A stretch of DNA of 64,000 nt from Escherichia coli. Lineage in GTDB: Bacteria; Pseudomonadota; Gammaproteobacteria; Enterobacterales; Enterobacteriaceae. The notes under the pieces are model-generated. The model saw only the letters and a list, made by a program, of their open reading frames with translations, was not told the DNA's origin and did no database searches. Each line of letters begins with the position of its first letter. Position 1 is the first letter of the stretch. Positions 32,820 through 61,120 of this stretch are shown piece after piece. Location of the stretch: the NCBI RefSeq assembly GCF_003991155.1, contig NZ_CP031293.1, one strand, 5' to 3'. A program made the translations under genes and the position numbers.

Positions 32820-33062
32820 TCATGCTCCGGTAGTGAACAGGTCTAACGCTTCCTTCGATTTACGCACCGCTTCGATAGTGCGGGTCGTGATATCTGAATT
32901 AGCGCCACCTGACTGGAAGTGAATTTTGAATAGCTCAAGCTTCAGTTCGTCAGTGCCAATGAACTGAAATGCTTCCTCTGCGGCTGCGTTCTGGTTCATG
33001 ACCAGTTTGTAAATCTCTAACTGGAATTTCTGTTCTTCAGTCATGGGAATAATCTCTGCCAT
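32820..33062 (-). CDS. Hypothetical late-region protein
   Basis: 80 aa ORF between lysis genes and terminase; a possible 59-aa GTG ORF follows at about 32641-32818. Confidence 0.35.
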   Translation of the reverse strand: MAEIIPMTEEQKFQLEIYKLVMNQNAAAEEAFQFIGTDELKLELFKIHFQSGGANSDITTRTIEAVRKSKEALDLFTTGA

Positions 33063-33365
33063 TGTTGGCTCCGTTTATCCGTTAAAAGGGATATCAGTTA
33101 AGTTATCCCGTGTAGGGTATAAGCCATTGTCGAGACCACTCATTGAATGGCCTCTGCAATAACCGATGTCTTTCCATCAGTCCGCCACCACAAAGAATCT
33201 TTTTTGCCATAAGGCTGGAGGTTCATCTTTCAGTGGCTGCCAGTGTTATTTCCCCACTTACTGGCTTGGGTTGTTTCGCTGTACTGCCGTTAATTGGTGA
33301 CCAGAAATTAACTCCGGTTTCATTATCAAGCCCACCCGTAGATGGGCTTTGTAATGACTACATGG

Positions 33366-33803
33366 TTAAATGATTTGCCAGTCTTCAGCCATCAGGTCGC
33401 CAATGGATGGAACCCATGTAGCAAGGCGGTTCTGTGAGTTTTTCAATACAAGCGTGTCATTGAAAGTTGGCTCGCCAACATATTCGCCAAAGCCATAACC
33501 CAACGCAGACGCTAATTTTTCCCCTTTCACGAGATAAACAAACTGGTCTTTCCCATTCCATCCTGCCCGCTGCAAACTTTTGCCCTGTTTTAACGCTTCC
33601 ATGGCAAGGCCGAAACTTAGCCCTGATACCGGACGATAAGCCTTCTCGAATACTTCTTTTGGACTCCAGCTAACGTAGCCATCAAAGCGATCGGTGTTAG
33701 GTTTTCCGCCATCCAGATATTCAACCAGATAGCCTTCGTCCTCGCCGTTTTCTCCGGCAGGAAGCTGCCAGCCACGAAAATCGTTATATGCCTGTCTCGT
33801 CAT
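33366..33803 (-). CDS. DUF2829-like phage protein downstream of lysis cassette
   Basis: Start taken at internal MTRQAYNDF (coordinate approximate); ORF track extends to 33968 but N-extension looks non-coding. Confidence 0.4.
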   Translation of the reverse strand: MTRQAYNDFRGWQLPAGENGEDEGYLVEYLDGGKPNTDRFDGYVSWSPKEVFEKAYRPVSGLSFGLAMEALKQGKSLQRAGWNGKDQFVYLVKGEKLASALGYGFGEYVGEPTFNDTLVLKNSQNRLATWVPSIGDLMAEDWQII

Positions 33804-34067
33804 CGGAAAGGCGTTAATCAGTTTTACGCCAATATGCTGGGTCATAAAATTACCTATGCAGTTGGGAATAAAAAGCCCCGCAAATGCGAGGCTAAATCCT
33901 GGTATTTGTAATGAACTGGCTCTTATCTCAACGCAGCCCCTTGCCGCGCGCCATATGCTTAACTTCAAGCATCAGCAATGAGATGTTTAATCTGGATTCA
34001 CTCCAGAAGTGATCACCACCCTGCCTACAGAGCCAGATGTGAAGGATGATGAGTAGAATTATCGCTA

Positions 34068-34535
34068 TCATCGAAGGCATTGCGTCCTGATGTATTCCTG
34101 AAGCGTTCTCAGTGCTGTTTGGTCGCGGATAATTCCGTCCCGGATACCGAGAACGTTTCGTCCAGCAACTGGAGAGAGTTCGACGGTGGCATCATTGCCC
34201 ATGCCGGAGGCGCTGGAGGTTTCGGCTGAGGATGGCACAGGGCATTTTCCTTTGACGAGCACCCTGCCACCATTATCAAGCTTGCGCCGAAGAGCATCAT
34301 TTTCAGCTTTCGCATCAGCTAACTCCTTCGTGTATTTAGCATCAAGTGCATCAGCAGTACGCTGGCGCTGCTGCATGTCAGTAATGGTGGCAGTCGCCTG
34401 CTTCAGCTCACTGACTTTTTTATCACGCTGTTCTTTGTAGGCGATGGCGTTATCACGGTAATGATTAACAGCCCATGACAGGCAAACGATGATGCAGATA
34501 ACCAGAGCGGAGATAATCGCGGTTACTTTGCTCAT
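34068..34535 (-). CDS. Rz: i-spanin Rz
   Basis: 155 aa, N-terminal TM and coiled coil; follows endolysin. Confidence 0.8.
34109..34315 (-). CDS. Rz1: o-spanin Rz1, embedded in Rz in alternate frame
   Basis: 68 aa, lipobox MVAGC and Pro-rich [11 protein letters not shown]. Confidence 0.6.
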
Positions 34536-35008
34536 ACCTCAATCTCTCTGACCGTTCCGCCTGCTTCTTTGAATTTTGCAATCAGGCTGTCAGCCTTATG
34601 CTCGAACTGACCATAGCCAGCGCCCGGCAGTGAAGCCCAGATATTGCTGCAACGGTCAATTGCCTGACGAATATCACCGCGATCAATCATCGGTAAAGCG
34701 CCACGTTCTTTAATCTGTTGCAATGCCACAGCGTCCTGGCTTTTCGGAGAGAAGTCTTTCAGGCCAAGCTGCTTACGATAGGCATCCCACCAACGGGAAA
34801 GAAGCTGGTAACGTCCGGCTGCTGTTGATTTGAGTTTTGGGTTTAGCGTGACAAGTTTGCGAGGGTGATCGGAGTAATCAGTAAATAGCTCTCCGCCAAC
34901 AATGACGTCATAACCATGATTCCTGGTTTTCTGTCGTCCGTTATCAGTTCCCTCTGACCACGCCAGCATATCGAGGAACGCCTTACGTTGATTATTGATT
35001 TCCACCAT
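34532..35008 (-). CDS. R: Endolysin (lambda R-like lytic transglycosylase)
   Basis: 158 aa, [24 protein letters not shown]. Confidence 0.95.
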
Positions 35009-35315
35009 CTTCTACTCCGGCTTTTTTAGCAGCGAAGCGTTTGATAAGCGAACCAATCGAGTCAGTACCGATGTAGCCGATGAACACGCTCGTTATATAA
35101 GCGAGATTGCTACTTAGTCCGGCGAAGTCGAGAAGGTCACGAATGAACCAGGCGATAATGGCGCACATCGTTGCGTCGATTACTGTTTTTGTAAACGCAC
35201 CGCCATTATATCTGCCGCGAAGGTACGCCATTGCAAACGCAAGGATTGCCCCGATGCCTTGTTCCTTTGCCGCGAGAATGGCAGCTAACAGGTCATGTTT
35301 TTCTGGCATCTTCAT
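34992..35315 (-). CDS. S: Holin/antiholin (lambda S-like, dual start Met1/Met3)
   Basis: 107 aa, [20 protein letters not shown]. Confidence 0.95.
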
Positions 35316-35605
35316 GTCTTACCCCCAATAAGGGGATTTGCTCTATTTAATTAGGAATAAGGTCGATTTCTGATAGAACAAATCCAGGCTACTGTGTTTA
35401 GTAATCAGATTTGTTCGTGACCGATATGCACGGGCAAAACGGCAGGAGGTTGTTAGCGCAGCCTCTTGCCACCCGCTTTCACGAAGCCAGCCATTGCGCT
35501 GGTTTTCTTTTATGCAAAGCACACCGCACCGTAGCCACAGCGGATAAGGTGATTATTTTGGTCTGTCTGGTATTTGGTTTGATGCGCTTTCAGAAAGGTC
35601 GTGCT

Positions 35606-35645
35606 TAAAACGCAAAAAGCCCCGAGCTATTAACTCAGGGCTTTA
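35606..35645 (-). terminator. Intrinsic terminator just downstream of late promoter (tR'-like)
   Basis: Minus-strand hairpin GCCCTGAGTTAATAGCTCGGGGC followed by TTTTTGCGTTTT. Confidence 0.45.
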
Positions 35646-35664
35646 TTTAACGAGTGCATTTATC

Positions 35665-35710
35665 CATCGTTGAGTCAAATTTACCCAACTTTATTCAAAA
35701 AGTCAATATT
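35665..35710 (-). promoter_or_regulatory. Late promoter pR' with qut-like region
   Basis: Minus strand TTGACT-N17-TAAATT followed by TTGACTCAACGATGG, closely resembling lambda pR' as remembered. Confidence 0.6.
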
Positions 35711-35748
35711 ATGCCGTTAATATGTTGCCATCCGTGGCAATCATGCTG

Positions 35749-36372
35749 CTAACGTGTGACCGCATTCAAGATATTGTCTGCGATTGACTCTTCCTTGTGG
35801 CATTGCACCACCAGAGCGTCATACAGCGGCTTAACAGTGCGTGACCAGGTGGGTTGAGTAAGGTTTGGGATTAGCATCGTTACAGCGCGATATGCGGCGC
35901 TTGCTGGCATTCTTGAATAGCCGACACCTTTGCATCTTCCGCATTCTTTCTCAACAACTCTCCCCCACAACTCTGTTTTGGCAATATCAACCGCACGGCC
36001 TGTACCGTGGCAATCTCTGCATCTTGCGCCCGGCGTCGCGGCACTACGGCAATAATCCGCATAAGCGAATGTTGCGAGCACTTGCAGTACCTTTGCCTTA
36101 GTATTTCCTTCGAGCTTTGCCACACCACGGTATTTCCCCGATACCTTGTGTGCAAATTGCATCAGATAGTTGATAGCCTTTTGTTTGTCGTTCTGGCTGA
36201 GTTCGTGCTTACCGCAGAATGCAGCCATACCGAATCCGGCTTGTGATTGCGCCATCCCCATAGCAGCCATCACATCAGTACCGGAAAGGGAGTCAGAAGC
36301 CGTGGCCCGTGGTGAGTCGCTCATCATCGGGCTTTTTGGCGAATGAAATTTAGCTACGCTTTCGAGTCTCAT
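35749..36372 (-). CDS. Q: Late antiterminator Q (lambda-like)
   Basis: 207 aa, [21 protein letters not shown]; Cys-rich zinc region. Confidence 0.95.
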
Positions 36373-37034
36373 GCGCCTTCTCCCTGTACCTTAATCAATG
36401 TGAGGTTTCCGCAGAACACTGCTCCGGTATCGATATACATTTGGTTGGCAAACTTGAGTGGTTTCACTGCTGGCGTATGACCAAAGATGAACGTGTCCGC
36501 TCCCTTGATTTCTTTTACGATCCCGTCTTGTGAGTTGCTGATTCGTTCGCGGTTCCAGATTACCTGCTGATGAACAACTGGCTTTCCAAACTCGTATTCG
36601 TCACAAGGATAATCGGCGTGGCAGATAACATATTTTTTACCTTTGCTCACCAGTTCAATGATTAACGAAAGTTCATCTGCTTTATGGGCAAGAGCTTTAG
36701 CCAGAATTTCTTTGTCGTAATCGAGATTAAAGAACCAGCCACCGCCATTAAACAGCCAGTGATTGACGTTTCCACGCTCTGATAAGCCATCAATCATCAT
36801 TTGCTCATGGTTTCCACGTACAGCTCTGAACCAGGGGAATGTGATTAATTCCAGGCATTCGACGTTCTCTGTACCGCGATCGACCAAATCGCCAACCGAG
36901 ATAAGCAGGTCTTTTTTGATGTCGAATCCTATCGTCTCCAGTTTTTTCATCAGGTTCGTGTAGCATCCGTGCAGATCGCCAACTACCCAAATATTCCGGT
37001 ATTTGCTGCCATCAATTCTTTCGTAATAGCGCAT
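36369..37034 (-). CDS. ninI: Ser/Thr protein phosphatase (lambda NinI-like)
   Basis: 221 aa from MRYYERIDG; GDLHG and GNHE motifs. Confidence 0.9.
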
Positions 37035-37218
37035 CTCTTTCACTCCATCCGCGATGAACCATGAGAACGTCGTTGACGATGGCGTGCATTTTCCCGTCTT
37101 TATCATCAACGTATTTTCTTACCGTGCCGCGACTACATTTCAGTCTGCGTGCCACTTCTGTCTGGTTTCCGTATGCTTCAACGAGCATGTCTGGAATGGT
37201 TTTTACTGAGAACGTCAT
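37012..37218 (-). CDS. ninH: NinH-like small DNA-binding protein
   Basis: 68 aa, matches lambda NinH pattern. Confidence 0.8.
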
Positions 37219-37826
37219 GCGGCCTCACTTCTGCTATTTCGCAGGTCTTTGAGTTTCTGTTGGTACTCTGCCTTGATCGCCTTGCACTCTTCGACAGTCC
37301 AGCGATGGCGGTTATGGTTTGATTCGATTTCGTCTACTGCTTCCTGCCCGATGCGATTAATCAGTTCGACGCGATACGGAACGAGATTTCCGCTTTTGTG
37401 CTGGTTGCACACCACGCATTGCTTGTGAATATTGCGTTCATCAAATCGGAGTTGAGGTGCCGCAGCAGTTGTCCGGTAATGTCCGGCATCCCACTGAGCA
37501 GACGTGAGCGTTCCGCACGAGATACATGGTAAGTCGCGGTCTCTTTCTCTGATGAAGGCGTTTACGGCTTGTTGGGCTTGTTTAATCCAGTAACTGCGGG
37601 GCTTTAAGGCGAGTTTTCGAATCTTCAGTTTATCTTTCTGTTTCTGCTCCTCTCGTCGTCGTTTCTTCTCTGCTGCTTTTTCCGCTTTTTCGCGTTCTTT
37701 ACTTCGTCGTTCGAGTGCTATCTTGGTTCCACACTCTGGAGAGCACCACCACTGATTAGCGAATGCAGGGTGAAACCATTCCCGACATTCATCGTTTTTA
37801 CATCGTCTTCGCGCTGGTTTAGCCAT
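37215..37826 (-). CDS. ninG: NinG/Rap-like recombination endonuclease
   Basis: 203 aa, Cys-rich N-terminus. Confidence 0.9.
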
Positions 37827-37995
37827 CGTCTTCTTCCTCGTACATTGAGCTATTCGGATCGCTCATCAGTTCTGCGCAGCAGTGCTCACACACGTGAACT
37901 TCCAGCACATGCAGCTTCTGACCGCAGTTAGCGCACGTTAAAGCTCGCTCGACGCTTTCTTTCTGGTATTGAAGAGATTGGGATGGACTAAGCAT
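37819..37995 (-). CDS. ninF: NinF-like small protein
   Basis: 58 aa ([27 protein letters not shown]), not in ORF track because <60 aa; overlaps ninG start. Confidence 0.65.
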
Positions 37996-38360
37996 TATTG
38001 GATTCTCTGCATCATGAGAAAGACAATCATGGCGGCGCGAAGGGGATTTTCATGTATAGCTCGCTTAGATTTACAGTAGGCCACACCGCGTGCACCCCAC
38101 TCGTCTTCATCGAGATTGATAATGCTAATCCTGTATTTTTCAATAATCGGCCATGAGTCTGCTGGGTTTGCGCATGGGTTAAAGGATCCGCGCTCAACTT
38201 CTACTTCAACTGCGTCTCCGTTTACAATGTCTCCCTCAAATGAGACAAACACCATATCGCCATTCTCACCTTCTTTGTAATCCGGTGATCCGTTATGAAT
38301 GGCTTCGAATACCGCCACGTTAATTTCAAAATCACTTAACTGTGAATAATCCATTGTCAT
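37995..38360 (-). CDS. Nin-region protein (NinX/DUF2591-like)
   Basis: 121 aa from ATG in ATGA overlap with ninE stop. Confidence 0.45.
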
Positions 38361-38533
38361 TTCCTCGCACGATGTCTTAGCCACCGGATATCCCACAGGT
38401 GAGCCGTGTAGTTGAAGGTTTTTACGTCAGATTCTTTTGGGATTGGCTTGCGTTTATTTCTGGAGCGTTTCGTTGGAAGGTATTTGCAGTTTTCGCAGAT
38501 GATGTCGGTGATGCTTCGTCGCTGTCGTCTCAT
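38357..38533 (-). CDS. ninE: NinE-like protein
   Basis: 58 aa from [20 protein letters not shown]; ATGA overlap with upstream gene. Confidence 0.8.
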
Positions 38534-39057
38534 GCCGCCCTCCTGACGCCCTGCCCGATCGCCATCAATGCCGCTTTGGATACGGTAGTAAACATCCGTC
38601 GAGGATTGATGAACGGTCGCCAAATCAGCAGCATGGAACCTTTGCTGTTTCCCTTCTTCTCCAGCCCTGTCGATGGTTCGATAAAATTAATCCGTCCATC
38701 AGTGATGATGCGAACTTCGTCAATACTCTCCAGAGCCTTGCTGAACCATCCGACAGACATATCCTCTGGCACAAGCATCACTACCGTCTGTCGCTGTTGT
38801 ATGCACTGCTCAGCGGCTTTTTCCACCCACGGCCTGATATTGCTGTACGGTGGGTTATTCCAGATTGCACCGTGGCTTACCCACTCAGAATTGAGCGCGT
38901 CGTCGGCCTCAGTTAGCCAGTGAGCACACAGAGCATTTTTGTCGCTCGCTGCCGAATCCAGCCAGAATCCAAACTCAATATCCAGTGCATCAAAAAGCCA
39001 AAGCGGCGTTTGCCAGCAGTCCTTGTCGTGTGCTGGCGTATTTGATTTGATAGTCAT
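38530..39057 (-). CDS. Orphan DNA N6-adenine methyltransferase (phage Dam-like)
   Basis: 175 aa from MTIKSN; NPPY motif (AIWNNPPYS); no adjacent restriction endonuclease. Confidence 0.7.
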
Positions 39058-39497
39058 GCAGCCCGATCTCCCCATCTCGCTTTCCACTCCAGAGCCAGTC
39101 TCGCTTCGTCTGACCACTTAACGCCACGCTCTGTACCGAATGCCTGTATAAGCTCTAATAGCTCCGCAAATTCGCCTACACGCATCCTGCTGGTTGACTG
39201 GCCTATTACCACAAAGCCATTCCCGGCAAGGTTAGGAACAACATCCTGCTGCTTTAATGCTGCGGTAAACACACACTTCCAGCTTTCTGCATCCAGCCAA
39301 CGCCCATGCCATTCAACCTGACGAGAGACGTCACCTAAGCAGGCCCATAGCTTCCTGTTTTGGTCTAAGCTGCGGTTGCGTTCCTGAATGGTTACTACGA
39401 TTGGTTTGGTTGGGTCTGGAAGAATTTTCTGGATAGCTTGAATGGCGTTCTGCTGATGGATGGGGCTTCTTAGTTCAAACGTTAGTTTCCTCACCAT
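39054..39497 (-). CDS. ninB: NinB/Orf-like recombination mediator
   Basis: 147 aa, MVRKLTFELRSPIHQQNAIQ. Confidence 0.85.
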   Translation of the reverse strand: MVRKLTFELRSPIHQQNAIQAIQKILPDPTKPIVVTIQERNRSLDQNRKLWACLGDVSRQVEWHGRWLDAESWKCVFTAALKQQDVVPNLAGNGFVVIGQSTSRMRVGEFAELLELIQAFGTERGVKWSDEARLALEWKARWGDRAA

Positions 39498-39641
39498 TTA
39501 CGCTCCTGTAATCGTCAAGTGCAGCTGCAATAGTCCCTATCGGGTCATGGTCTTGCCCGATAATCTCATTTACGTTTTCATCTTCTTCCACACCGAAAAA
39601 GAATCGCAGGGCTAACATGATTTCTTCGTATGCGCTCATAC

Positions 39642-39956
39642 TCACTCCTTCACTTTGACTCCAGCAGTGCGGATGGCCTCTACATCGCTTTCGTATTGTG
39701 ATTCTGCACCTGAGTCATAGCCAATGTGATAATCACCGGGAAGTGGGCCTTTCTTTGGCTTTTGCAGCTCAATTTCAATAGCTGCTCTCGATGCCTGCCA
39801 CGTTTGCCAGTGGCCTTGAACATCGTCCATCACGTATTGACCACCAATATTACCGCTGCCAATTTCATGGTGATTTTCAGGGTAACGGATAAGGTCTGAA
39901 GATTCGCCCCCACGTCGCAACCAACTTTCTTCAAACTGCTTTCTTGATTCGTCCAT
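39642..39956 (-). CDS. Hypothetical protein
   Basis: 104 aa ORF between helicase gene and ninB; no recognised motif. Confidence 0.4.
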   Translation of the reverse strand: MDESRKQFEESWLRRGGESSDLIRYPENHHEIGSGNIGGQYVMDDVQGHWQTWQASRAAIEIELQKPKKGPLPGDYHIGYDSGAESQYESDVEAIRTAGVKVKE

Positions 39957-39973
39957 TGATACTTACCCTCAGT

Positions 39974-40180
39974 TCAACTCACAAAACGCCACGCCATTTT
40001 TGCTACGACAACAGGCATAACACCGATAATCACCCAGACAAATGCAGCGCCAAACAACGTATACCATGGGTCTTTACCGTCATTCACAAGACGAATGTAG
40101 CTATGCAGAACAATAAAAAACGTCAGAAGAATCCATCCAACGCCAACGCATTTGAATGCGACGAGCATAAACTCAGCCAC
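39974..40180 (-). CDS. Small two-helix membrane protein, unknown function
   Basis: 68 aa, two hydrophobic segments. Confidence 0.35.
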   Translation of the reverse strand: MAEFMLVAFKCVGVGWILLTFFIVLHSYIRLVNDGKDPWYTLFGAAFVWVIIGVMPVVVAKMAWRFVS

Positions 40181-40252
40181 GATTTACCCTCCCCCAAATA
40201 AAAAGGCCTGCGATTACCAGCAGGCCTGTTATTAGCTCAGTGATGTAGATGG

Positions 40253-41629
40253 TCATACGTCCGCCCCTTGTGCATATCGTCTGCCACGCGCAGCAGGCGC
40301 ATTTGATGCTGTGCAAATCTGTCTGGCTTCATCCTGGTCACATGCAACAAAGTGTCCGTTACAGAACCGCTGGTAAACCGTACCAAGTGAGCCAAAACGG
40401 TTTTTCGTCACGATGATTTCAGCAAATGGCGCGGCGCTACTGTTCTCGTCATATACCGCTTCCCGATAGAGCATGATGATTGAGTCTGCGTCCTGCTCAA
40501 TGCTTCCTGAATCACGCAAATCTGCGTTTGTCGGGCGTTTGTTTGGTCGCTTCTCAACATCGCGCGAAAGCTGACTCAGGGAGATAACAGGCGTTTTCAG
40601 GTCTTTCGCCATCGCCTTCAGGCTTCCGGAGATGTGAGCAATTGCGAGGTCGTTGCGGTCTGCTTTCGGCTTCTCAATCAGGCCAAGATAATCCGCCATG
40701 ATTAGAGACAGGTTTGGATTTTCCTGTTTATGCCGTTCTGCGATTGAGCGTATTTCTTCGACCGATAACCGCGAGGCATCGACTACCCATACATCCAAAT
40801 CTGCAAGCTGACTCATGCCGTTAGCAACACGCGCCCAGCCTTCGTCATCCATCGATGCAGGATTTCGCAGTACGCTAACCGACATCCTCCCGGCGTTGGC
40901 AATGCTTCGCTCTGCAATCTGCAATGCGCTCATTTCCATCGAGAAAATCAACACTCCGCGCCGGACGTCAGAACCGGGAATAACGCGGCTTGCAACGCCT
41001 TCAGCAATCTTCAGCGCCAGCTCGGTTTTCCCCATACCAGGACGAGCGGCGATAATCACCAGGTCTTCCGCGTTCATCCCTCCGGTGATGGCGTCAAGTT
41101 CTTCGATTCCGGTCTTCAGGGTATCTGACTCTTCTCCGTTCCTCAGACGCCTGTCAAGCGTGTCAGTGTAGTCAGTGATGATTTCCCCTAACCGTACAGG
41201 TTTAACCTCGTCACGGGGCTTTCTGATGGCTGAAAGACGCTTTACAAGCTCGTCCATCGCCTGACTCGATGTATCGATGGTTCCGCTCTGAATTGGTTCA
41301 CGCATTTCATCCATGATTTCCAGCACCAGACGGCGGTGATAGTTATCCGCGACCATTCCGGCATATCCTTTCAGGTTTGCGGCACTCGGGCAGTTTTTGC
41401 TGGTCATCAGGATTGACGTGAAATGCTCCTCTCCGCACGCCTCGGCAACCATCAGCGCGTCGATTAGGTTTCTGTTTCTCGCCTGCTTGCGGATAACCTC
41501 GAAGGCTTTCCGGTAGAGCGGAATTGAAAACGCTTCCGGCTCCAGTGTTGCCAGAACGTCGCTGGCGGTTGGAGTTAATCCACCAATCAGCAGACCGCCG
41601 ATAACGCTCGCTTCGATATCCTGTCTCAT
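40253..41629 (-). CDS. Replicative DnaB-like helicase (P22 gene 12-like)
   Basis: 458 aa, Walker A GMGKT and DnaB C-terminal motifs. Confidence 0.9.
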
Positions 41630-42573
41630 GCAATCCCCCTGTCTGCAAACTTCCCTTCCCGTACTCCCGTTAACGAATCTTCCCTCAGCAGGTAATCAAA
41701 ATCTGCCGTCCATCCCGTGTCGTTGTCTCCGAAGTAAAACGGCTTGGCCTGATGCACAAACGCCCTGACATACGCTCTGAAACCGTCCACGTTTGGCGTT
41801 TTCAGTTGCGGGATGATTTTCTTCAGGCGGCGTTTGCGTTTCTCGTTGACCGCAACAGCGTGTGGCAGTCTGTCACCGACTTCGGTGTTGTAAGCGTTCA
41901 GGAAGGATTCGTAGTCGATTCGTTCTGCCTTGCGACGTTCAGGTTTAACCTGCCCATCGCCTCCCCCATTGGGGGGTAGGGGGGTATTATTTATATTCTT
42001 GTTAATACCTTCTTGTTCATGATGTGCGGTTGTTTGTGCGGCTTCATGTGCGCTTTCATGTGCGGCATGTACGCTGAATGCCGCGCCATTACTGGCTTCA
42101 TCATGTGCGGCATCATGTGCGGTTGTTTGTGCGGCTTCATGTGCGGGTGAACTGTCCATTTTTTGAGCATATTCATGGTAATTTGTGATGGTTATCACAC
42201 GACCTTTTTGCTTCTCCCCATCAATGGAGATCATCCCCTCTTTCACAAAAACCTGAAGCATCCGCTCAACCTGATCACGGCTTGCCGGCTTGCCATGCCT
42301 GTCGCATAACTGAAGACCTAAATCAGCTGCTGTCACAACCAGTTGACCGGGTTGCAGATGCCATTCATGACCTTTGAAATTCGCTTTGTATGGCTTTCTG
42401 GCGGCATTCAGGAGAAGGTTTTCCCACAGGGTGCGAAGATAAACATCTTTCGCCCATGACTGTTTCAGAATGCTCCGGTACAACGGAATGTAACCAGTTT
42501 TCTGGTTCTCCATCCTGTTGCTCCTGCGCTCGTGTGCGGCGCTGAAATCGTAGATTTTTGCTGTATTGCTCAT
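41626..42573 (-). CDS. Replication initiator (P22 gene 18 / O-like) containing ori iterons
   Basis: 315 aa; repeat-encoded His/Ala-rich tract; overlaps helicase start. Confidence 0.8.
42018..42150. repeat. Replication-origin iterons inside the initiator gene
   Basis: Repeated (T)CATGTGCGG units; ~30-bp block ATGTGCGGTTGTTTGTGCGGCTTCATGTGCG present twice. Confidence 0.6.
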
Positions 42574-42575
42574 AA

Positions 42576-42848
42576 CTACCTGCCTTGACGAAAGACCTTA
42601 AGAACATCGTTAAACTGACTTACGGATATGTCTTCTTTGAGAAGCTTTTCCAGAAATGCGTTTGGAATGAACGTATATCCCTCCTCTTTTGGTAGAGACG
42701 AGAGCAACGCCCTCGCCTCAGCCTTCAGAAGCTCAGTTCTGGCAACTTTCACAAAAGAGATTTGAGTTCTTTCATCAATGGAACGAAGGAAGCGCAAACG
42801 CTTAGCTTCTTTGTGTGTATCAGGTGGATTAAAGCCTTTGTTTCGCAT
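42576..42848 (-). CDS. Hypothetical protein between cII-like gene and initiator
   Basis: 90 aa from internal ATG with GAGGT RBS; long ORF-track N-extension overlaps cII in another frame. Confidence 0.4.
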   Translation of the reverse strand: MRNKGFNPPDTHKEAKRLRFLRSIDERTQISFVKVARTELLKAEARALLSSLPKEEGYTFIPNAFLEKLLKEDISVSQFNDVLKVFRQGR

Positions 42849-42870
42849 ATAATTACCTCGCTGGATGTTG

Positions 42871-43164
42871 TTAAAATTCCATTTGTATTTGATCAGAACG
42901 CTCGGTTGCCGCCGGGCGTTTTTTATTGGTGAGAATCGAAGCAACTTGTCGTGCCAATCGAGCCATATCGTCGTCAACGACGCCCCATTCAAGAACAGCA
43001 AGCAGCATTGAGAACTTTGGAATCCAGTCCCTCTTCCACCTGCTGATCTGCGACTTATCAACTCCCACAGCTTCCGCTGTCTTCTCAGTTCCAAGCATTG
43101 CGATTTTGTTAAGCAACGCACTCTCGATTCGTAGAGCCTCGTTGCGTTTGTTTGCACGAACCAT
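42871..43164 (-). CDS. cII: CII-like lysogeny establishment regulator
   Basis: 97 aa from MVRANKRNEALRIESALLNKIAMLG, lambda CII-like. Confidence 0.9.
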   Translation of the reverse strand: MVRANKRNEALRIESALLNKIAMLGTEKTAEAVGVDKSQISRWKRDWIPKFSMLLAVLEWGVVDDDMARLARQVASILTNKKRPAATERSDQIQMEF

Positions 43165-43221
43165 ATGTAAGTATTTCCTTAACAAATAAGAAGTTATGCG
43201 CATCAACTTATGCGCGTTGTA

Positions 43222-43266
43222 TTCCCGCATTTCGGCGGGAATGAGGACCATGACTGTTAAAGAGCA
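43222..43266 (-). promoter_or_regulatory. nutR (boxA + boxB hairpin)
   Basis: Minus strand TGCTCTTTAACA then hairpin TCCCGCCGAAATGCGGGA; same elements downstream of PL. Confidence 0.55.
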
Positions 43267-43272
43267 ATTTGC

Positions 43273-43458
43273 TTATGCCGCTTTGCGGTAAGCGCTTTCT
43301 TGATACTTCAGGGCGCCAGCTGTAACGACTTCCAGTCGATAGGCGTCTTTCTCTGGGATGACTTCCTTCCACTGAGAGACTGCTGCGTCGCTAATGCCTA
43401 ACGCTTTAGCTACAGCACGCTGGGTTCCGAAGTGGTCGATAACATCTTTCTTGTACAT
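43273..43458 (-). CDS. cro: Cro (P22-type)
   Basis: 61 aa, MYKKDVIDHFGTQRAVAKALGISDAAVSQW. Confidence 0.9.
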   Translation of the reverse strand: MYKKDVIDHFGTQRAVAKALGISDAAVSQWKEVIPEKDAYRLEVVTAGALKYQESAYRKAA

Positions 43459-43472
43459 AGACTCGCTCCGAA

Positions 43473-43538
43473 ATTAAAGAACACTTAAATTATCCACTAA
43501 AGGAATCTTAAGTCAAGTTTATTTAAGATGTCTTAACT
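43473..43538. promoter_or_regulatory. OR operator cluster with PR/PRM (three 18-bp P22-type operators)
   Basis: ATTAAAGAACACTTAAAT, ACTAAAGGAATCTTAAGT, ATTTAAGATGTCTTAACT between divergent cro and c2. Confidence 0.7.
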
Positions 43539-44189
43539 ATGAAAACTCAATTGATGGGAGAGCGCATTCGCGCTCGGAGAAAAGAACTCAAGATCAGGCA
43601 GGCCGCACTTGGAAAGATGGTCGGCGTGTCTAATGTTGCCATATCTCAGTGGGAACGCTCTGAGACAGAGCCAAATGGAGAGAATCTTCTCGCCCTGGCT
43701 AATGCGTTGAAGTGTTCCCCTGACTATCTGATGAAAGGAGAGGAAAGTCTTTCAAACATTGCCTATCACAGTAGGCATGATCCAAGAGGGTCATACCCTC
43801 TGATTAGCTGGGTGAGCGCAGGATGCTGGATGGAAGCTGTAGAACCATATCATAAGCGTGCAATAGATAACTGGTACGATACAACCGTAGACTGTTCAGA
43901 AGATTCGTTTTGGTTGGATGTGAAGGGAGACTCAATGACGGCTCCGGCCGGTCTCAGTATCCCTGAAGGAATGATAATACTCGTCGATCCTGAAGTAGAG
44001 CCGCGTAACGGGAAACTGGTAGTTGCAAAGCTCGAAGGAGAAAACGAGGCAACTTTCAAGAAGTTAGTTATTGATGCAGGCAGGAAGTTTCTAAAACCAC
44101 TTAACCCACAATATCCGATGATCGAGATCAACGGAAACTGCAAAATCATCGGCGTAGTTGTCGATGCAAAACTAGCAAACCTTCCATAA
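43539..44189 (+). CDS. c2: C2 repressor (P22-type, LexA-like autocleaving)
   Basis: 216 aa, HTH N-domain and S24 peptidase C-domain. Confidence 0.95.
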   Translation: MKTQLMGERIRARRKELKIRQAALGKMVGVSNVAISQWERSETEPNGENLLALANALKCSPDYLMKGEESLSNIAYHSRHDPRGSYPLISWVSAGCWMEAVEPYHKRAIDNWYDTTVDCSEDSFWLDVKGDSMTAPAGLSIPEGMIILVDPEVEPRNGKLVVAKLEGENEATFKKLVIDAGRKFLKPLNPQYPMIEINGNCKIIGVVVDAKLANLP

Positions 44190-44214
44190 GGGGGCATTCG
44201 CCCCTTTTTTTTAT
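44190..44214 (+). terminator. Intrinsic terminator after c2
   Basis: GGGGCATTCGCCCC followed by TTTTTTTT. Confidence 0.55.
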
Positions 44215-44254
44215 TTCCTTTAAAAATCAAAGCCAAACTTAAGTTACGAAAGAA

Positions 44255-44310
44255 AATTTAAGTTTTCTTCAAAAATACTCTTGACCATTAATTAAAGAGA
44301 TCTTAAATTT
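44255..44310 (+). promoter_or_regulatory. OL operators and PL promoter
   Basis: Operator-like palindrome ATTAAAGAGATCTTAAAT and TTTAAG-containing site; TTGACC -35 at 44281. Confidence 0.5.
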
Positions 44311-44355
44311 AAGCCATCAGCAGGACGCTGGAAGCCAAACGGAACAGATTGGCAG

Positions 44356-44396
44356 GCTCTTTAACATTGATGGGATTGTCCCGCCGAAATGCGGGA
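44356..44396 (+). promoter_or_regulatory. nutL (boxA + boxB hairpin)
   Basis: GCTCTTTAACA then TCCCGCCGAAATGCGGGA, inverted copy of nutR. Confidence 0.55.
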
Positions 44397-44795
44397 ACCA
44401 AAGAGTAGTTGGCTTTGGGATTGGATGAATGAGCAGGCTGATGCTCGACCAATGTATAAACAGCGCTCATGGCAAGCAGTAACCAATCTGCGCCTCAAGA
44501 CAGCGTCACTGGTAGTGCGGGCGCTCTAACCAGTAAGCCGGAGTTCAGCACCGGCCATCCAATCGCCAAAGTCAATTCCATAGGCGTTATGCAGCCGCCA
44601 CCTATTCAAGAAAGCTGCACAAGAGGTAGGAGGATTTATGTGAATACTTACATTCAATTGAGAGATTAATTAAATAGAACTGATCGAGCAGAGTCCATAA
44701 AGGCTCATAAATGCTCTTCCATCCCCGTCTAATTGGCGGGGAAGGAAACCACTTTGTAATAAAAAAATTCCAAAGTTGTTTCATCGGAGGTCAAC

Positions 44796-45095
44796 ATGAC
44801 AGTAGTCATTACATATCTAGCTGACGATAACGCCAGAAATCGCCGCAGAGCACGCAGGCAGGCTCAACGTGAACAGGCAATGCAAGAACAGCGACTGGCG
44901 CGAAAGATTGCGCTAAAGCTCTCTGGTTGCGTCAGAGCAGACAAAGCAGCATCACTCGGAAGCCTTCGCTGCAAGAAGGCAGAAGAAGTCGAGAGTAAAC
45001 AGAACCGTATTTACTACCGCAAGCCACGCAGTGAAATGGGTGTGACTTGTGTTGGTCGCCAGAAAATGAAATTAGGCAGCAAACCACTTATTTGA
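44796..45095 (+). CDS. N-like antitermination protein (P22 gene 24-like)
   Basis: 99 aa, arginine-rich motif NARNRRRARRQAQREQ. Confidence 0.7.
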   Translation: MTVVITYLADDNARNRRRARRQAQREQAMQEQRLARKIALKLSGCVRADKAASLGSLRCKKAEEVESKQNRIYYRKPRSEMGVTCVGRQKMKLGSKPLI

Positions 45096-51691: not shown

Positions 51692-51883
51692 ATGACCGAT
51701 ACCAGCCTGATTCCTGAGAAAGAAGTGATGAACAAGCTCGGTGTTTCATCACGTCAGACAATCTGGAACTATACCAAACGGCACGGATTTCCGAAGCCAG
51801 TCAGAACCCACCCCAAATCATACCTTCGTGAAGCTGTTGAAGGGTGGATTCTTAACGGTGGCGTTAATCAGAAATGCTCCTGA
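51692..51883 (+). CDS. xis: AlpA-family excisionase / DNA-binding regulator
   Basis: 63 aa with HTH (LGVSSRQTIWNYTKRHGFPKP); adjacent to integrase. Confidence 0.7.
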   Translation: MTDTSLIPEKEVMNKLGVSSRQTIWNYTKRHGFPKPVRTHPKSYLREAVEGWILNGGVNQKCS

Positions 51884-53042
51884 TGTGCCAGAACAATTTA
51901 TCAGCGTGAAGCTCATACGCTTTGCGCTGAGCCTCTATCCAGTCGTGTTTATTGTATACGGACATTATCCCGCCAAGTTCATGACCGAGCATTCGCTCAG
52001 TAACATGAGGCTCGACATTCATCTCGGACAGACGTGTAACAAGCGTTCTTCTGAAATCGTGTGTTCGCCAGTAACCTAGATCCATCCCTCCCCTTATTCT
52101 ATTTACGAATCGGTTGGCTGCAGCGATGCTGATCGGTTTGTTTATGTCTTCTCCAGGGAAAAGAACATCATTGTACGTTGTCATGGCCTTTTCGAGGAAA
52201 GGCTTAATTTGTTCGAAGATTGGACGGCGGATAGCATTACCCATCTTGCTATGCTCTTTCGGTACGGTCCATACGTTTTCCAGCAGGTCAAATTCTGTCT
52301 TTTTTGCCAGCCTAAGCTCTGAGAGCCTCGCCCCCCACAGCATAAGCATCTGATGAAGTAGCTTATTTGACGTAGACGCACGGCTTCTTTCAATAGCAAG
52401 CCAAATCTTAGCCAGTTCGTGATACGACAGTACACGATCCCCTACCTCAGCGCGGGAGCCGAAGTCCCTTGGTTGGATGCTCATAATTGCGCAACTATCT
52501 ATCAACTGACGCCGCATGCACCAACTTATTGCTGATCTTAGTTGACTTAGCACCTGCCTTGCTCGGCGTGGATTATCTCTTTCTTCTTCGGTAAGCAGGT
52601 CAACCCATTGCTTAACCGTGATAGAAGATGCCGGACGATTAGGGAAGGCGTCATGCATGCGCTTCATAACCGTTGATCGGTAAAGTGCCTGGGTCTTTTC
52701 TCTGAGAGTTGTAGAGACGTAGTTGTCGAACCAGTAGTCGAGACACTGGGCGACCGTCATGGAGTTCTCCACCTTCTCTTCAAAATAAGTGCGTGGATCC
52801 GTTCCTGAGAAATAGAGCTTTCGCAAGTCAGCAGTGATCTGTCTGGCATCCTTCAAAGACATGGATGGGTATCGACCAAGCCCAAGTCGATTAGGCTTGC
52901 CATGCCAGCGATAGCGGTACTGGAACTGGATGACCCCCTTCGGTGAAATTCGTACGCTGAGGCCATCGGCATCAGCCACTTCTTGTGGGCCCGAATATGG
53001 TTTACCATAAATAGTACGAAGTTTTGTGTCGCTTATAGCCAT
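51864..53042 (-). CDS. int: Tyrosine site-specific integrase
   Basis: 392 aa; C-terminal HDFRRT...LGH catalytic region; next to right junction. Confidence 0.9.
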   Translation of the reverse strand: MAISDTKLRTIYGKPYSGPQEVADADGLSVRISPKGVIQFQYRYRWHGKPNRLGLGRYPSMSLKDARQITADLRKLYFSGTDPRTYFEEKVENSMTVAQCLDYWFDNYVSTTLREKTQALYRSTVMKRMHDAFPNRPASSITVKQWVDLLTEEERDNPRRARQVLSQLRSAISWCMRRQLIDSCAIMSIQPRDFGSRAEVGDRVLSYHELAKIWLAIERSRASTSNKLLHQMLMLWGARLSELRLAKKTEFDLLENVWTVPKEHSKMGNAIRRPIFEQIKPFLEKAMTTYNDVLFPGEDINKPISIAAANRFVNRIRGGMDLGYWRTHDFRRTLVTRLSEMNVEPHVTERMLGHELGGIMSVYNKHDWIEAQRKAYELHADKLFWHIRSISD

Positions 53043-53050
53043 AAATAATA

Positions 53051-53097
53051 TTTGGTACGCTCAGAAATAATGGTTTGGTACACATCTGGTACACAAT
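53051..53097. promoter_or_regulatory. Candidate integrase arm-type binding sites (right arm)
   Basis: Repeated TTTGGTACGC / TTTGGTACAC / TGGTACACAA motifs between int and core. Confidence 0.4.
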
Positions 53098-53223
53098 ATC
53101 ACATGGACAACAGCGCACAGTAAACAACTATATTTGACGTTCGTAGACATACTCAGGTGAAAAAATGGTTGTTTTTCGAGTTATAACAGACAGTTAATTA
53201 ACTACAGTGGACAATGCTAGACA

Positions 53224-54648
53224 ATGACAGACACAGATAAACAACCTACCTTCCTCTTTCACGATTACGAAACCTTTGGAACGCACCCCGCGTTAGATCG
53301 CCCTGCACAGTTCGCAGCCATTCGCACTGATAACGAATTCAATGTCATCGGCGAACCCGAAGTCTTTTACTGCAAGCCCGCGGATGACTATTTACCCCAG
53401 CCTGGAGCAGTATTAATTACCGGTATTACCCCGCAGGAGGCACGGGCGAAAGGAGAAAACGAAGCCGCGTTTGCCGCCCGTATTCACTCGCTTTTTACCG
53501 TACCGAAGACCTGTATTCTGGGCTACAACAATGTGCGTTTCGACGACGAAGTCACACGCAACGTTTTTTATCGTAATTTCTACGATCCTTACGCCTGGAG
53601 CTGGCAGCATGATAACTCGCGCTGGGATTTACTGGATGTTATGCGTGCCTGTTATGCCCTGCGCCCGGAAGGAATAAACTGGCCTGAAAATGATGACGGT
53701 CTACCGAGCTTTCGCCTTGAGCATTTAACCAAAGCGAATGGTATTGAACATAGCAACGCCCACGATGCGATGGCTGATGTGTACGCCACTATTGCGATGG
53801 CGAAACTGGTAAAAACGCGTCAGCCACGCCTGTTTGATTATCTCTTTACCCATCGTAATAAACACAAACTGATGGCGTTGATTGATGTTCCGCAGATGAA
53901 ACCCCTGGTTCACGTTTCCGGAATGTTTGGGGCATGGCGTGGCAATACCAGCTGGGTGGCACCGCTGGCGTGGCATCCTGAAAATCGCAATGCCGTAATT
54001 ATGGTGGATTTGGCAGGAGACATTTCGCCATTACTGGAGCTGGATAGCGACACATTGCGCGAGCGTTTATATACCGCAAAAGCCGATCTTGGCGATAACG
54101 CCGCCGTTCCGGTTAAGCTGGTGCATATCAATAAATGTCCGGTACTGGCCCAGGCGAATACGCTACGCCCGGAAGATGCCGACCGACTGGGAATTAATCG
54201 TCAGCATTGCCTCGATAACCTAAAAATTCTGCGTGAAAATCCGCAAGTGCGTGAAAAAGTGGTGGCGATATTCGCGGAAGCCGAACCGTTTACGCCTTCA
54301 GATAACGTGGATGCACAGCTTTATAATGGCTTTTTCAGTGACGCCGATCGTGCAGCAATGAAAATTGTGCTGGAAACCGAGCCGCGTAATTTACCGGCAC
54401 TGGATATCACTTTTGTTGATAAACGAATTGAAAAACTGTTGTTCAATTATCGAGCGCGCAACTTCCCGGGGACGCTGGATTATGCCGAGCAGCAACGCTG
54501 GCTTGAGCACCGCCGCCAGGTCTTCACGCCAGAGTTTTTGCAGGGCTACGCTGATGAATTGCAGATGCTGGCACAACAGTATGCCGATGACAAAGAGAAA
54601 GTGGCGCTGTTAAAAGCGCTTTGGCAGTACGCGGAAGAGATTGTCTAA
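53224..54648 (+). CDS. sbcB: Exodeoxyribonuclease I; first ~11 codons supplied by the prophage
   Basis: 474 aa; N-terminus MTDTDKQPTFLFHDYETFG differs from the remnant MMNDGKQQSTFLFHDY at attL. Confidence 0.9.
   Translation: MTDTDKQPTFLFHDYETFGTHPALDRPAQFAAIRTDNEFNVIGEPEVFYCKPADDYLPQPGAVLITGITPQEARAKGENEAAFAARIHSLFTVPKTCILGYNNVRFDDEVTRNVFYRNFYDPYAWSWQHDNSRWDLLDVMRACYALRPEGINWPENDDGLPSFRLEHLTKANGIEHSNAHDAMADVYATIAMAKLVKTRQPRLFDYLFTHRNKHKLMALIDVPQMKPLVHVSGMFGAWRGNTSWVAPLAWHPENRNAVIMVDLAGDISPLLELDSDTLRERLYTAKADLGDNAAVPVKLVHINKCPVLAQANTLRPEDADRLGINRQHCLDNLKILRENPQVREKVVAIFAEAEPFTPSDNVDAQLYNGFFSDADRAAMKIVLETEPRNLPALDITFVDKRIEKLLFNYRARNFPGTLDYAEQQRWLEHRRQVFTPEFLQGYADELQMLAQQYADDKEKVALLKALWQYAEEIV
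53257..53269. repeat. attR core (13-bp identity with attL)
   Basis: TTTCACGATTACG inside sbcB codons 12-16. Confidence 0.6.
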
Positions 54649-54655
54649 TGTGAAG

Positions 54656-54681
54656 CCTCCGCCGCTGGTACGGCGGAGGAC
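54656..54681. terminator. Bidirectional hairpin between convergent sbcB and yeeD
   Basis: CCTCCGCCGCTGGTACGGCGGAGG. Confidence 0.5.
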
Positions 54682-54690
54682 AATTTTGAG

Positions 54691-54918
54691 TCAGGCTTTT
54701 TGAACGGTGATGCTCCACGTAGCATCACCAATCTGCTGATAATCGGTGATGGCATGTCCTTCTTCTGCCGCCCACTGTGGGATTGCTTCAGTTGCCTGGG
54801 TGCAATCAAACTCAATTACCAACTCATCGCCGCTGGCCATTTCTGCCAGTGCTGCTTTTGCTTCTATGAGTGGAAACGGACAGACCTGCGTCACCACATC
54901 CAGCTTTTTAATCGCCAT
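54691..54918 (-). CDS. yeeD: TusA-family sulfur carrier protein YeeD
   Basis: 75 aa with CPFP motif. Confidence 0.85.
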   Translation of the reverse strand: MAIKKLDVVTQVCPFPLIEAKAALAEMASGDELVIEFDCTQATEAIPQWAAEEGHAITDYQQIGDATWSITVQKA

Positions 54919-54931
54919 CTTTACACCTTAC

Positions 54932-55990
54932 TTAATTTGCCGCAGCAGTTGCCAGTCGCGCCTTACGCTGCGGTCGAACATACACAAGCCAGGACGCAGT
55001 CCAGACTCCGAGAATCATAAATACAAGGCCAATCCAGCCCTGCCAGGTCATCATTGCAGTCATTACCAGTCCATTACCGATAGAGCAACCACCTGCAATG
55101 CTGGCACCGAAGCCCATCAGTACACCACCTAACCCGCTACGTAATGTTGTTTGTGCATCAGCAGCGCGAACGCGGAACTCACGGCTCGCTTTGGCGGCAA
55201 TAAATGACCCCACGAAGATCCCTAACACCAGGAAAACGCCCCAGTTAATGTATTTCACGTCACCCGCGACCAGAAATTGCAGAATATTGGCCGTTGGGGA
55301 AGTGATGCCTAACCCAAACATACGTCCGGTTGCTTCACTCAGGGGCCAGGCTAAAAGCGCAATCAAACCGATGAGTACAGCTGTGACAAAGGGATGCCAG
55401 CGTTTTTCAAACATAATATGAGCGATCCCAGTTCGGCGCGGCGGTAAGGTCGCGACTTTGAGTTTTGGCTTCTTCAACTCTTTCATCACCACCCAGAGCG
55501 TTATCACCAGCAAAACGGCAACCAACGGCCACACAGACAAATTAAAAGTCTCAGCAATAGAGTTATGTTCAGTACTGTAGTGCTGCAAGGTTTGATTTAA
55601 ACCACTGGCATGTGGAGAACGCATCACCGCACTCATCACCATATAAGTGAAAAGCGCGATCCAACTGCCGATCAATCCCTCACCCGCGCGATACCAGGTC
55701 CCGGTAGCACATCCACCCGCCAGAACAATTCCCAGCCCGAAGATATACCCACCGATAACAGTGCCAAGCCACGGGAACGCCCCGGCTTCGTAAGTCAGTA
55801 GACCCGCCTGAATTAACGCAAAAACCCCCACGCTTTGTACCGAAATTGCAATCAGCAGGGCGTAAAACATGCGATTATTTTTCGCGATATACATATCGCG
55901 AAAACCACCTGTCAGGCAAAAACGCCCACGCTGCATGACAAATCCCAGCAGAGCACCACAAATTAGCCCGCTTAATATCATTGAAAACAT
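54932..55990 (-). CDS. yeeE: Thiosulfate transporter YeeE
   Basis: 352 aa polytopic membrane protein. Confidence 0.85.
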   Translation of the reverse strand: MFSMILSGLICGALLGFVMQRGRFCLTGGFRDMYIAKNNRMFYALLIAISVQSVGVFALIQAGLLTYEAGAFPWLGTVIGGYIFGLGIVLAGGCATGTWYRAGEGLIGSWIALFTYMVMSAVMRSPHASGLNQTLQHYSTEHNSIAETFNLSVWPLVAVLLVITLWVVMKELKKPKLKVATLPPRRTGIAHIMFEKRWHPFVTAVLIGLIALLAWPLSEATGRMFGLGITSPTANILQFLVAGDVKYINWGVFLVLGIFVGSFIAAKASREFRVRAADAQTTLRSGLGGVLMGFGASIAGGCSIGNGLVMTAMMTWQGWIGLVFMILGVWTASWLVYVRPQRKARLATAAAN

Positions 55991-56118
55991 AAATTAATTA
56001 ACCAGATGAATGTTAATGAGGAAATTATTCATGACTGGTGGAATGCAGACCAATAACCAAATTCTCTAAATTAGAACAAATGGTTATTAATGAGGATTTC
56101 GATAAAAAAGAATAAAAA

Positions 56119-56155
56119 AACCGGAGCCAAATATTCATTCGACTCCGGTTGATTA
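56119..56155 (-). terminator. Intrinsic terminator after plaP
   Basis: Minus-strand hairpin AACCGGAGTCGAATGAATATTTGGCTCCGGTT then T-run. Confidence 0.6.
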
Positions 56156-56168
56156 TTAGAAAAGATGA

Positions 56169-57527
56169 TTATGCTACGTCTTCGTACTGCGGAACCGGGT
56201 TACGGAAGCTCTTGGTGACGCAAGCCAGGTAAATCAGACCGATAGCAGCCCAGATCAGACCCAGAACCATTGAGCTTTCTTCCAGGTTAACCCACAGCGC
56301 ACCAACGGTCAGCGCACCACACATCGGCAGGAACAGATACTGGAAGTGATCTTTCAGCGTCTTGTTACGCTTCTCACGGATCCAGAACTGCGAGATAACC
56401 GACAGGTTAACGAAGGTGAACGCCACCAACGCACCAAAGTTAATCAGCGCCGTAGCCATTACCAGGTCGAAGTTGATTGCCAGCAGGGCAATCGCGCCAA
56501 CCAGGATGATGTTCATCGCCGGAGTACGCCATTTCGGGTGTACATAACCGAAGAAGCTTTTCGGGAATACGCCGTCACGACCCATTACGTACATCAGACG
56601 CGCTACGCCTGCGTGCGCCGCCATACCGGACGCCAGTACGGTAATGGTGGAGAAGATCAGCGCGCCAACCTGGAACGCTTTACCCGCAACGTACAGCATG
56701 ATTTCAGGCTGTGACGCATCCGGATCTTTAAAACGAGAGATATCCGGGAAGTACAGCTGCAGGAAGTAAGTTGCAAAGATGAAGATCATGCCGCCGATCA
56801 GCGCGGTCAGGAAAATCGCACGCGGGATCACGCGCTCTGCATCTTTGGTTTCTTCCGACAGGTTGCTGATGCCGTCAAAGCCGGTAAAGGAGAAGCACAG
56901 GATTGTCGCCCCGGTAATCATCGGGATAACATGCGCATCGCCAGACCAGAACGGACGAGTGCTCGCCAGCGTACCCGCGCCTTCACCTTCAAATACGCCA
57001 TAAACAACCATGCCCAGGATCACCGCGATCAGCACTACCTGCAACACGACGATTACAGTGTTGAAGTTCGCTACGGATTTCAGACTACGCAGGTTAAAGG
57101 CGGTCATAAAGGCCACCAGCGCCACCACAAACATCCACGATGGAATGGAAGGCACCAGAGCTTCAAAATAGATTTTCGCCAGCAGAATGTTGATCATCGG
57201 CGCGAACAGATAGTCGAGCAGAGAAGACCAACCCACCATAAAGCCGACGGTCGGGCTAATGGATTTCTGGGCGTAAGTGTATGCAGAGCCAGCAGAAGGA
57301 TAGCGGCGGACCAGCTTCCCGTAGCTCAGAGCCGTAAACAGGATCGCAATCAATGCGAACGCATAGGCTGTCGGCACATGACCATCCGTGAGGCCTGAAA
57401 CGATACCAAATGTATCAAACAGCGTCATCGGCTGCATATAGGCAAGACCCATCATTACAACCGGAACTAACGTAAGCGTTTTACGCAATTCCACGCGAGA
57501 GGTGTTTGGAGTAACGTTATGCGACAT
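56169..57527 (-). CDS. plaP: Putrescine importer PlaP (YeeF)
   Basis: 452 aa APC-family permease from [14 protein letters not shown]. Confidence 0.85.
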
Positions 57528-57793
57528 GGTCATTCTCCTTTACGGTGATAACCGTCGCGTAAGCAAAAAATTGCCCCATTTTTTTGGATTCCTCAGCGAC
57601 AACAACTGTCGATTTTTAGTAAATATCTATCCGGTACGAAGCCCGGCCTCTTGGTATGAATGATTGGTTTGAAGCAAAAAATAACCGACGCTAATTAAAC
57701 GTCGGTTTTTAGTCATTTTTTGACAGCGGCGCATTGTGCCTAAATGGGGGGGAAATGACAAGAGAATGAGAGGCTTGTCATAATAATTTTTCT

Positions 57794-58723: not shown

Positions 58724-58768
58724 ACACGCCCCCTTGCAGTGCATGCGGCGTCCTGCTGGCGTGATCGT

Positions 58769-59593: not shown

Positions 59594-59697
59594 CCGTTAT
59601 CTCCTGATACACCTTAGATCTATAAGGCTACGCTAGCGTATCAAAACTGACAATTCATTCTATGAATGAAATCGAAACTGTTAGCAAATATACAATT

Positions 59698-59796
59698 GCC
59701 TGATGTGCTCCGCTTATCAGTCCTACAAAAACATCAATACATTGAATTTAGGCAATATTTGTAGACCTGATAAGGCATTCACGCCGCATCCGGCAG
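59698..59796. repeat. REP/BIME elements in yeeZ-hisL intergenic region
   Basis: GCCTGATG..CGCTTATCAG..CCTAC and inverted GTAGACCTGATAAGGCATTCACGCCGCATCCGGCAG. Confidence 0.5.
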
Positions 59797-61115: not shown

Positions 61116-61120
61116 TCGCC

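Follow-up and report, generated by a model that had tools for sequence, protein, structure and literature searches.

Two phage-borne adenine methyltransferases are the described systems closest to the one considered here. The enzyme of phage VT2-Sa is listed as the orphan GATC methylase M.EcoVT2Dam (PMC6602927 Table 3), and PMC7556043 credits its cloning to Radlinska & Bujnicki 2001 (reference 30 there). For phage T1, DNA prepared from a dam- host stays DpnI-sensitive, whereas deletion of T1 dam renders it DpnI-resistant and MboI-sensitive (PMC10470545). In the present work, we analyzed a stretch of 64,000 nucleotides of the Escherichia coli contig NZ_CP031293.1 (hereafter the window), in which a gene on the minus strand, at 38530..39057, encodes a methyltransferase (MTase) of 175 amino acids (aa) followed by a TGA stop. 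According to our analysis, this MTase is very probably a T1/VT2-type phage “Dam” (PF05869, TIGR01712) that methylates the adenine of GATC. This estimate covers the identity and the GATC-methylase activity of the protein only; its biological role is rated separately.

Identity and predicted target site

The MTase matched the Pfam family PF05869 (Dam) with an E value of 1.8e-64 (residues 4-169 on positions 1-167 of the 169-position model) and the NCBIfam equivalog TIGR01712 with 265.5 bits at a cut-off of 97.05 (residues 2-168 on positions 1-165 of 165). Matches to PHROG 111 and to the PADLOC “orphan methyltransferase” (oMTase) models were obtained as well. The original prediction, which had proposed an orphan N6-adenine DNA methyltransferase embedded in the nin region, is correct by the PF05869, TIGR01712 and PADLOC oMTase models. 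The family is very large, because 8723 representatives at E <=0.001 were recovered when 1.84 billion cluster representatives were searched exhaustively with HMMER. Several long proteins of 497-691 aa were also found in the representative library, the C-terminal ~170 residues of which are 47-50% identical to the MTase, so that this minimal Dam core can also be joined to a large N-terminal region.

Conservation was assessed in an alignment of the window protein with 54 diverse homologues, including phage T1 Dam (55 sequences). All the invariant columns (T17, D34, N68, P70, R122, and F125) and all the nearly invariant ones (P18, A37, W59, P69, Y71, L95, W104, and N137) are kept in the MTase, and P69 and Y71 of the NPPY motif are conserved in at least 90% of the 55 homologues. 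Motif IV, (N/D)PP(Y/F/W), is represented by NPPY at residues 68-71 (38845..38856, minus strand), the catalytic adenine-binding loop, which was identified both by direct reading (AAC CCA CCG TAC) and from the alignment, and lies in the stretch IWNNPPYSN; the protein ends in GVRRAA. The motifs W-x-TP, D-x-AAS and GR-x-x-F are present together with N137. The motif I-like sequence FWLDSAAS (residues 31-38; 38944..38967, minus strand) contains the invariant D34 and the nearly invariant A37 and forms the first beta-strand of the predicted Rossmann-like core, in which D34 would bind S-adenosylmethionine (AdoMet). Thus, the NPPY motif predicted earlier is in place, and the alignment proposed as a check on it revealed no disrupted catalytic motif, with every invariant residue retained. 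It could be supposed that the gene is an inactive remnant of a decaying prophage, given the many truncated fragments of it in public data (short matches, 90-99% identical); this is almost certainly not the case here, in view of the full-length frame, the complete set of invariant residues, the confident structural model (see below) and the coupling kept on both sides of the gene.

The closest characterized counterpart is orf32 of VT2-Sakai (NP_050531), a 175-aa protein identical to the MTase at 173/175 positions, the two differences (I112V and N151S) both being conservative. The M.EcoVT2Dam gene shares the position between ninB and ninE and, in annotated coordinates, the 4-bp start/stop overlaps, and is also found in 933W, VT1-Sakai, Phi24B, SfI, Sf101, HK544, and IME10. 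The carriers differ: VT2-Sakai is a Shiga toxin (Stx) phage, whereas the present copy resides in a P22-like E. coli prophage. We also considered whether a second VT2-Sakai methyltransferase could be the real “M.EcoVT2Dam”. This was rejected: orf32 is the only DNA methyltransferase annotated in the whole VT2-Sakai record, and orf4, the largest uncharacterized early open reading frame (ORF) of this phage, matches only families of unknown function.

T1 Dam (YP_003925, M.EcoT1Dam) is a more distant relative, 34% identical to the MTase over 158 residues (E 9e-27). It shares the W-x-TP, D-x-AAS, NPPY, and GR-x-x-F motifs and the Pfam/TIGRFAM family, but is longer (237 aa), with a ~45-residue N-terminal extension and an insertion before the GR-x-x-F hairpin; its carrier is a virulent siphovirus, and its gene lies outside any nin region. 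The near-identity to VT2-Sakai orf32, the listing of M.EcoVT2Dam and the T1 Dam experiment together make the earlier statement that the target site is unknown untenable. From the 173/175 identity and the T1 deletion data, GATC is expected as the site with high certainty, a certainty that comes from sequence comparison and not from experiment on this exact protein.

Predicted fold and relation to other methyltransferases

An AlphaFold2 model built from the 55-sequence alignment (mean pLDDT 95.4, pTM 0.90) has a compact alpha/beta core, in which a first strand with D34 (FWLDSAAS) is followed by a long loop and a strand leading into NPPY, and then by three more strands with helices between them, a hairpin at residues 120-140 (GR-x-x-F ... 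N-x-KGS) and a C-terminal helix. This is the class I AdoMet-dependent methyltransferase fold. As modeled, the MTase is a minimal gamma-class-like catalytic core without a separate target-recognition domain, with a presumed functional layout of an N-terminal W-x-TP, a D-x-AAS AdoMet-binding strand, the NPPY loop and the GR-x-x-F...N hairpin. By analogy with gamma-class enzymes, the target adenine would be flipped into the NPPY pocket, and the methyl group would be moved to it from AdoMet. The hairpin with R122, F125 and N137 probably closes the adenine pocket and contacts the DNA, and GATC may be read either by a dimer or by the conserved hairpin 120-140.

When the PDB was searched by sequence, once using the MTase alone and once using the 55-sequence profile, no true relative, and no solved structure for the family, was found; the matches to Med31 were dismissed as a chance similarity of “WCNPPYS”. 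At the top of the solved folds matching the model was PCIF1, the writer of m6Am in RNA caps, with gamma-class DNA methyltransferases scoring nearly as high, and METTL3-14 was low in the Foldseek ranking (TMq 0.25). The gamma-class enzymes M.TaqI, M.BseCI and HsdM, as well as PCIF1/CAPAM, possess large extra recognition or helical domains, which are absent from the MTase, and their identity to it is 14-17%.

The alpha-class enzymes E. coli Dam, T4 Dam and DpnM (PF02086) yield the same product, G-m6A-TC, and have the same general class I fold. Neither a match to the MethyltransfD12 (PF02086) profile nor the alpha-class motif order with a recognition domain was found in the MTase. Since the MTase and host Dam are unrelated beyond the shared fold, their common GATC specificity is convergent.

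Assignment to the MT-A70 group was likewise not supported, as the MTase has NPPY rather than DPPW and gave no MT-A70 match in Pfam. This distinction is relevant to M.EcoGV / M.EcoPA8orf6770P, another Stx-phage “GATC methylase”, which has turned out to be mainly a 16S rRNA methyltransferase (PMC10810198). Like the MTase, it is prophage-borne and annotated in REBASE as a GATC adenine methyltransferase; it differs in being an MT-A70 protein (DPPW) from another phage locus that needs the partner PNB-2 and prefers 16S rRNA (PMC10810198). On the grounds of both motif and locus, the possibility that the two are the same enzyme was ruled out.

Together with the PCIF1 fold match, the precedent of M.EcoPA8orf6770P, which methylates 16S rRNA with a partner protein (PMC10810198), might suggest that the physiological substrate of the MTase is RNA rather than DNA. 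We consider this exceedingly improbable: the precedent belongs to the MT-A70 (DPPW) proteins and not to PF05869, and its gene has another place in the phage; the gamma-class DNA methyltransferases come close to PCIF1 in score; and T1 Dam methylates phage DNA at GATC in vivo under native expression (PMC10470545).

Relaxed, non-specific or otherwise non-GATC adenine methylation, of the type known for M.EcoGII and Hia5, was weighed in the same way. Non-specific prophage adenine methyltransferases do occur in E. coli and Haemophilus (PMC5778455, PMC3299994), and the MTase has no recognizable target-recognition domain. The beta-class order of M.EcoGI/GII consists of an N-terminal DPPY, a central recognition domain and a C-terminal FxGxG in ~349 aa (PMC5778455), whereas the MTase has 175 aa, places motif I ahead of motif IV, and lacks a recognition domain. 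A tie to these enzymes was therefore rejected, M.EcoGII being a 349-aa beta-class protein and the Hia5 group alpha-class; the VT-2, T1 and HP1 Dam enzymes go unmentioned in the Hia5 paper. With both of these belonging to other families, with only I112V and N151S separating the MTase from VT2-Sakai orf32, and with the divergent T1 homologue also GATC-specific (PMC10470545), such a specificity is very unlikely. A broader version of these proposals, in which the nin-region “Dam” acts on something other than duplex GATC (RNA, single-stranded replication or recombination intermediates handled by NinB/NinG, or adenine in a relaxed manner), draws on the PCIF1 fold match and on the reassignment of the Stx-phage “GATC methylase” to 16S rRNA, and we regard it as very doubtful indeed.

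Expression and possible role

The carrier is a P22-like prophage (IME10 / APC_JM3.2 type) located in the E. coli chromosome beside the pdu operon. A pR-like sigma-70 promoter, TTGACT-16-GATAAT (43489..43516, minus strand; 10/12 matches in a consensus scan), adjoins the divergent cI-type repressor gene (43539..44189, plus strand; PHROG 4) and would drive the operon containing the MTase. Between the replication genes and the nin region, at the position of lambda tR2, the terminator scan revealed a tR2-like intrinsic terminator hairpin (40204..40227, minus strand) with an 8-bp stem, 6 GC pairs and a T-run. No promoter-like site was found close to the MTase by the consensus scan. Because this is the delayed-early layout of lambda, the gene is expected to be silent in the repressed lysogen and to be switched on after induction. 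The MTase, translationally coupled in the nin segment of the pR delayed-early operon, would be made only after induction or infection, and its production would need N-type antitermination through the tR2-like terminator.

It may alternatively be assumed that the MTase is active in the lysogen, where it would regulate host or prophage genes epigenetically, for instance by adding to the activity of host Dam, an enzyme reportedly required for stable 933W lysogeny. Such a role was raised as an idea by the authors working on Phi24B, whose “dam” coding sequence is 100% identical to VT2-Sakai NP_050531, once the gene product had been detected in lysogen cultures (PMC3342100). However, the same study assigned lytic-cycle expression patterns to four of the five CMAT-identified genes that it profiled; the odd one out was CM18, while the dam clone, CM2, showed a significant change on induction (PMC3342100). 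Furthermore, the present gene lies in a repressed pR operon, behind a terminator-like hairpin and with no promoter-like site nearby, and its host provides GATC methylation of its own. A role in the lysogen, and with it the earlier suggestion that the enzyme alters host gene regulation there, is thus unlikely.

Host Dam leaves the virion DNA of P22 and lambda, neither of which has the MTase gene, under-methylated, possibly because modification cannot keep pace with replication (PMC8022706). For this reason, the most economical role would be the complete GATC methylation of progeny, in which the MTase would fully methylate fast-replicating phage DNA when host Dam is outpaced; we hold this proposal with evenly balanced confidence. 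The progeny DNA would then seem “self” to Dam-dependent host processes and would resist those restriction enzymes that GATC methylation blocks, also where the host has little Dam or none at all. Protection from host restriction, as originally suggested, is accordingly plausible in part: it would extend only to enzymes that GATC methylation inhibits, and Dam is already present in the host.

The GATC content of the prophage was compared with that of the flanks 1-11000 and 51800-64000 using a maximal-order Markov estimate. In the prophage (11800-51500), 84 sites were observed and 205 expected (ratio 0.41), as against 63 and 69 in the right host flank (51800-64000). The tetranucleotides CTAG (0.23) and GGCC (0.46) are also low in the prophage. 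GATC is therefore avoided by a phage that itself encodes a GATC methylase.

Several considerations weigh against our interpretation of the MTase as a GATC methylase serving the phage. The depletion of GATC leaves fewer sites to methylate in the prophage, and with Dam already encoded by the E. coli host, the benefit to the phage is a putative one. At 175 aa, the enzyme has no recognition domain by which GATC would be read. The specificity of the 99%-identical VT2 protein rests on secondary citations and REBASE-derived tables, and the authors of the M.EcoPA8orf6770P study warn that specificity based on over-expression can mislead (PMC10810198). In spite of these points, none of the four rival explanations (remnant, RNA substrate, relaxed specificity, and lysogenic regulator) has positive support specific to this MTase.

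By itself, the finding of the MTase matters little, as it is a recognizable member of a curated family. Two questions of more general interest concern this family and not the window specifically. The first is why a GATC methylase of their own, of unrelated evolutionary origin, is so frequent in temperate phages whose hosts are Dam-positive; it might ensure full methylation while replication runs away, help the phage to evade restriction enzymes that GATC methylation blocks, or influence induction. The second is how a 175-aa enzyme without a recognition domain gains sequence specificity. Among sequence-specific DNA methyltransferase architectures that lack a solved structure, that of this family would be the smallest.

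Gene neighborhood and distribution

According to the ORF list and its translation, the MTase starts with ATG at 39057..39055 and stops with TGA at 38532..38530. The ORF claimed by the original prediction is thus real, and its location on the minus strand is a detail that had not been given. The frame is open upstream to a GTG at 39117 (39058-39117, minus strand), which would add 20 residues and overlap the end of ninB. A 195-aa product starting at this GTG was rejected, as homologues and family profiles begin at ATG 39057, and the extension is probably not translated. An ORF of 174 aa that starts with GTG (38399..38923, plus strand) runs antisense to the gene and is most likely a shadow of its coding frame.

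The upstream neighbor is ninB (Orf recombination mediator; 39054..39497, minus strand; PHROG 72, E 2.2e-57), and the downstream one is ninE (38357..38533, minus strand; PHROG 288, E 4.5e-28, and NCBIfam NinE). The TGA of ninB overlaps the ATG of the MTase, and the ATG of ninE overlaps its TGA; the plus-strand “tcat” at 39054-39057 and at 38530-38533 reads ATGA on the coding strand. The coupling proposed for both flanks is therefore present, as is the placement in the slot used in lambda for ninC and ninD, which lie there between ninB and ninE. ATGA coupling is common to lambdoid nin regions in general (PMC8022706) and hence says nothing particular about the MTase gene. The next gene downstream, ninX (DUF2591-type; 37995..38396, minus strand; PHROG 444, E 5.4e-41, residues 14-131), likely starts at an internal ATG near residue 14 of the listed ORF, and NinX is annotated at the equivalent position in homologous phage records. 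Past ninE, the gene order is ninX, ninF, ninG/Rap, ninH, a NinI-type phosphatase and a Q-type antiterminator. A pR'-like promoter and a strong terminator (35616-35706, minus strand) follow immediately after the Q-type gene in a 6S-RNA-like arrangement.

A PADLOC scan of the eight neighboring ORFs gave no restriction-enzyme match, in agreement with the claim that no endonuclease partner is adjacent, and the neighbors (ninB, ninE, ninX, ninF, ninG, ninH, and ninI) include no cognate restriction endonuclease, which is consistent with an orphan MTase. NinG/Rap (37215-37826, minus strand) had weak PADLOC matches to PtuB (Septu) models (E 3e-4 to 1.6e-3); it is not a restriction partner of the MTase.

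The DNA segment ninB-MTase-ninE/ninX was found in 426 phage records at 80-99% identity, spanning lambda-like, P22-like and Stx phages of Escherichia, Shigella and Salmonella and usually annotated as a methyltransferase between NinB and NinE. The annotated dam product of Shigella phage SfI shares 99.4% identity with the protein, and copies from several Stx1 and Stx2 phages share 97.7-98.9%. Among 5426 complete E. coli genomes, 1565 (~29%) carry the 528-bp gene at >=95% identity, labeled in RefSeq as “phage N-6-adenine-methyltransferase” between “recombination protein NinB” and “NinE family protein”. The MTase is an already known gene, for which automatic annotation under this name is to be expected.

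The best coverage of the 12-kb early region (33000-45000) by any complete E. coli genome does not exceed 83%, at ~97% identity, although each of its modules is common on its own. This region is a new mosaic of standard lambdoid modules in a P22-like prophage, a state that does not affect the identity of the MTase. Just outside the tailspike end of the prophage lies a 390-aa ORF (11872-13044, minus strand) matching PHROG 5304 “peptidase” (E 9e-195).
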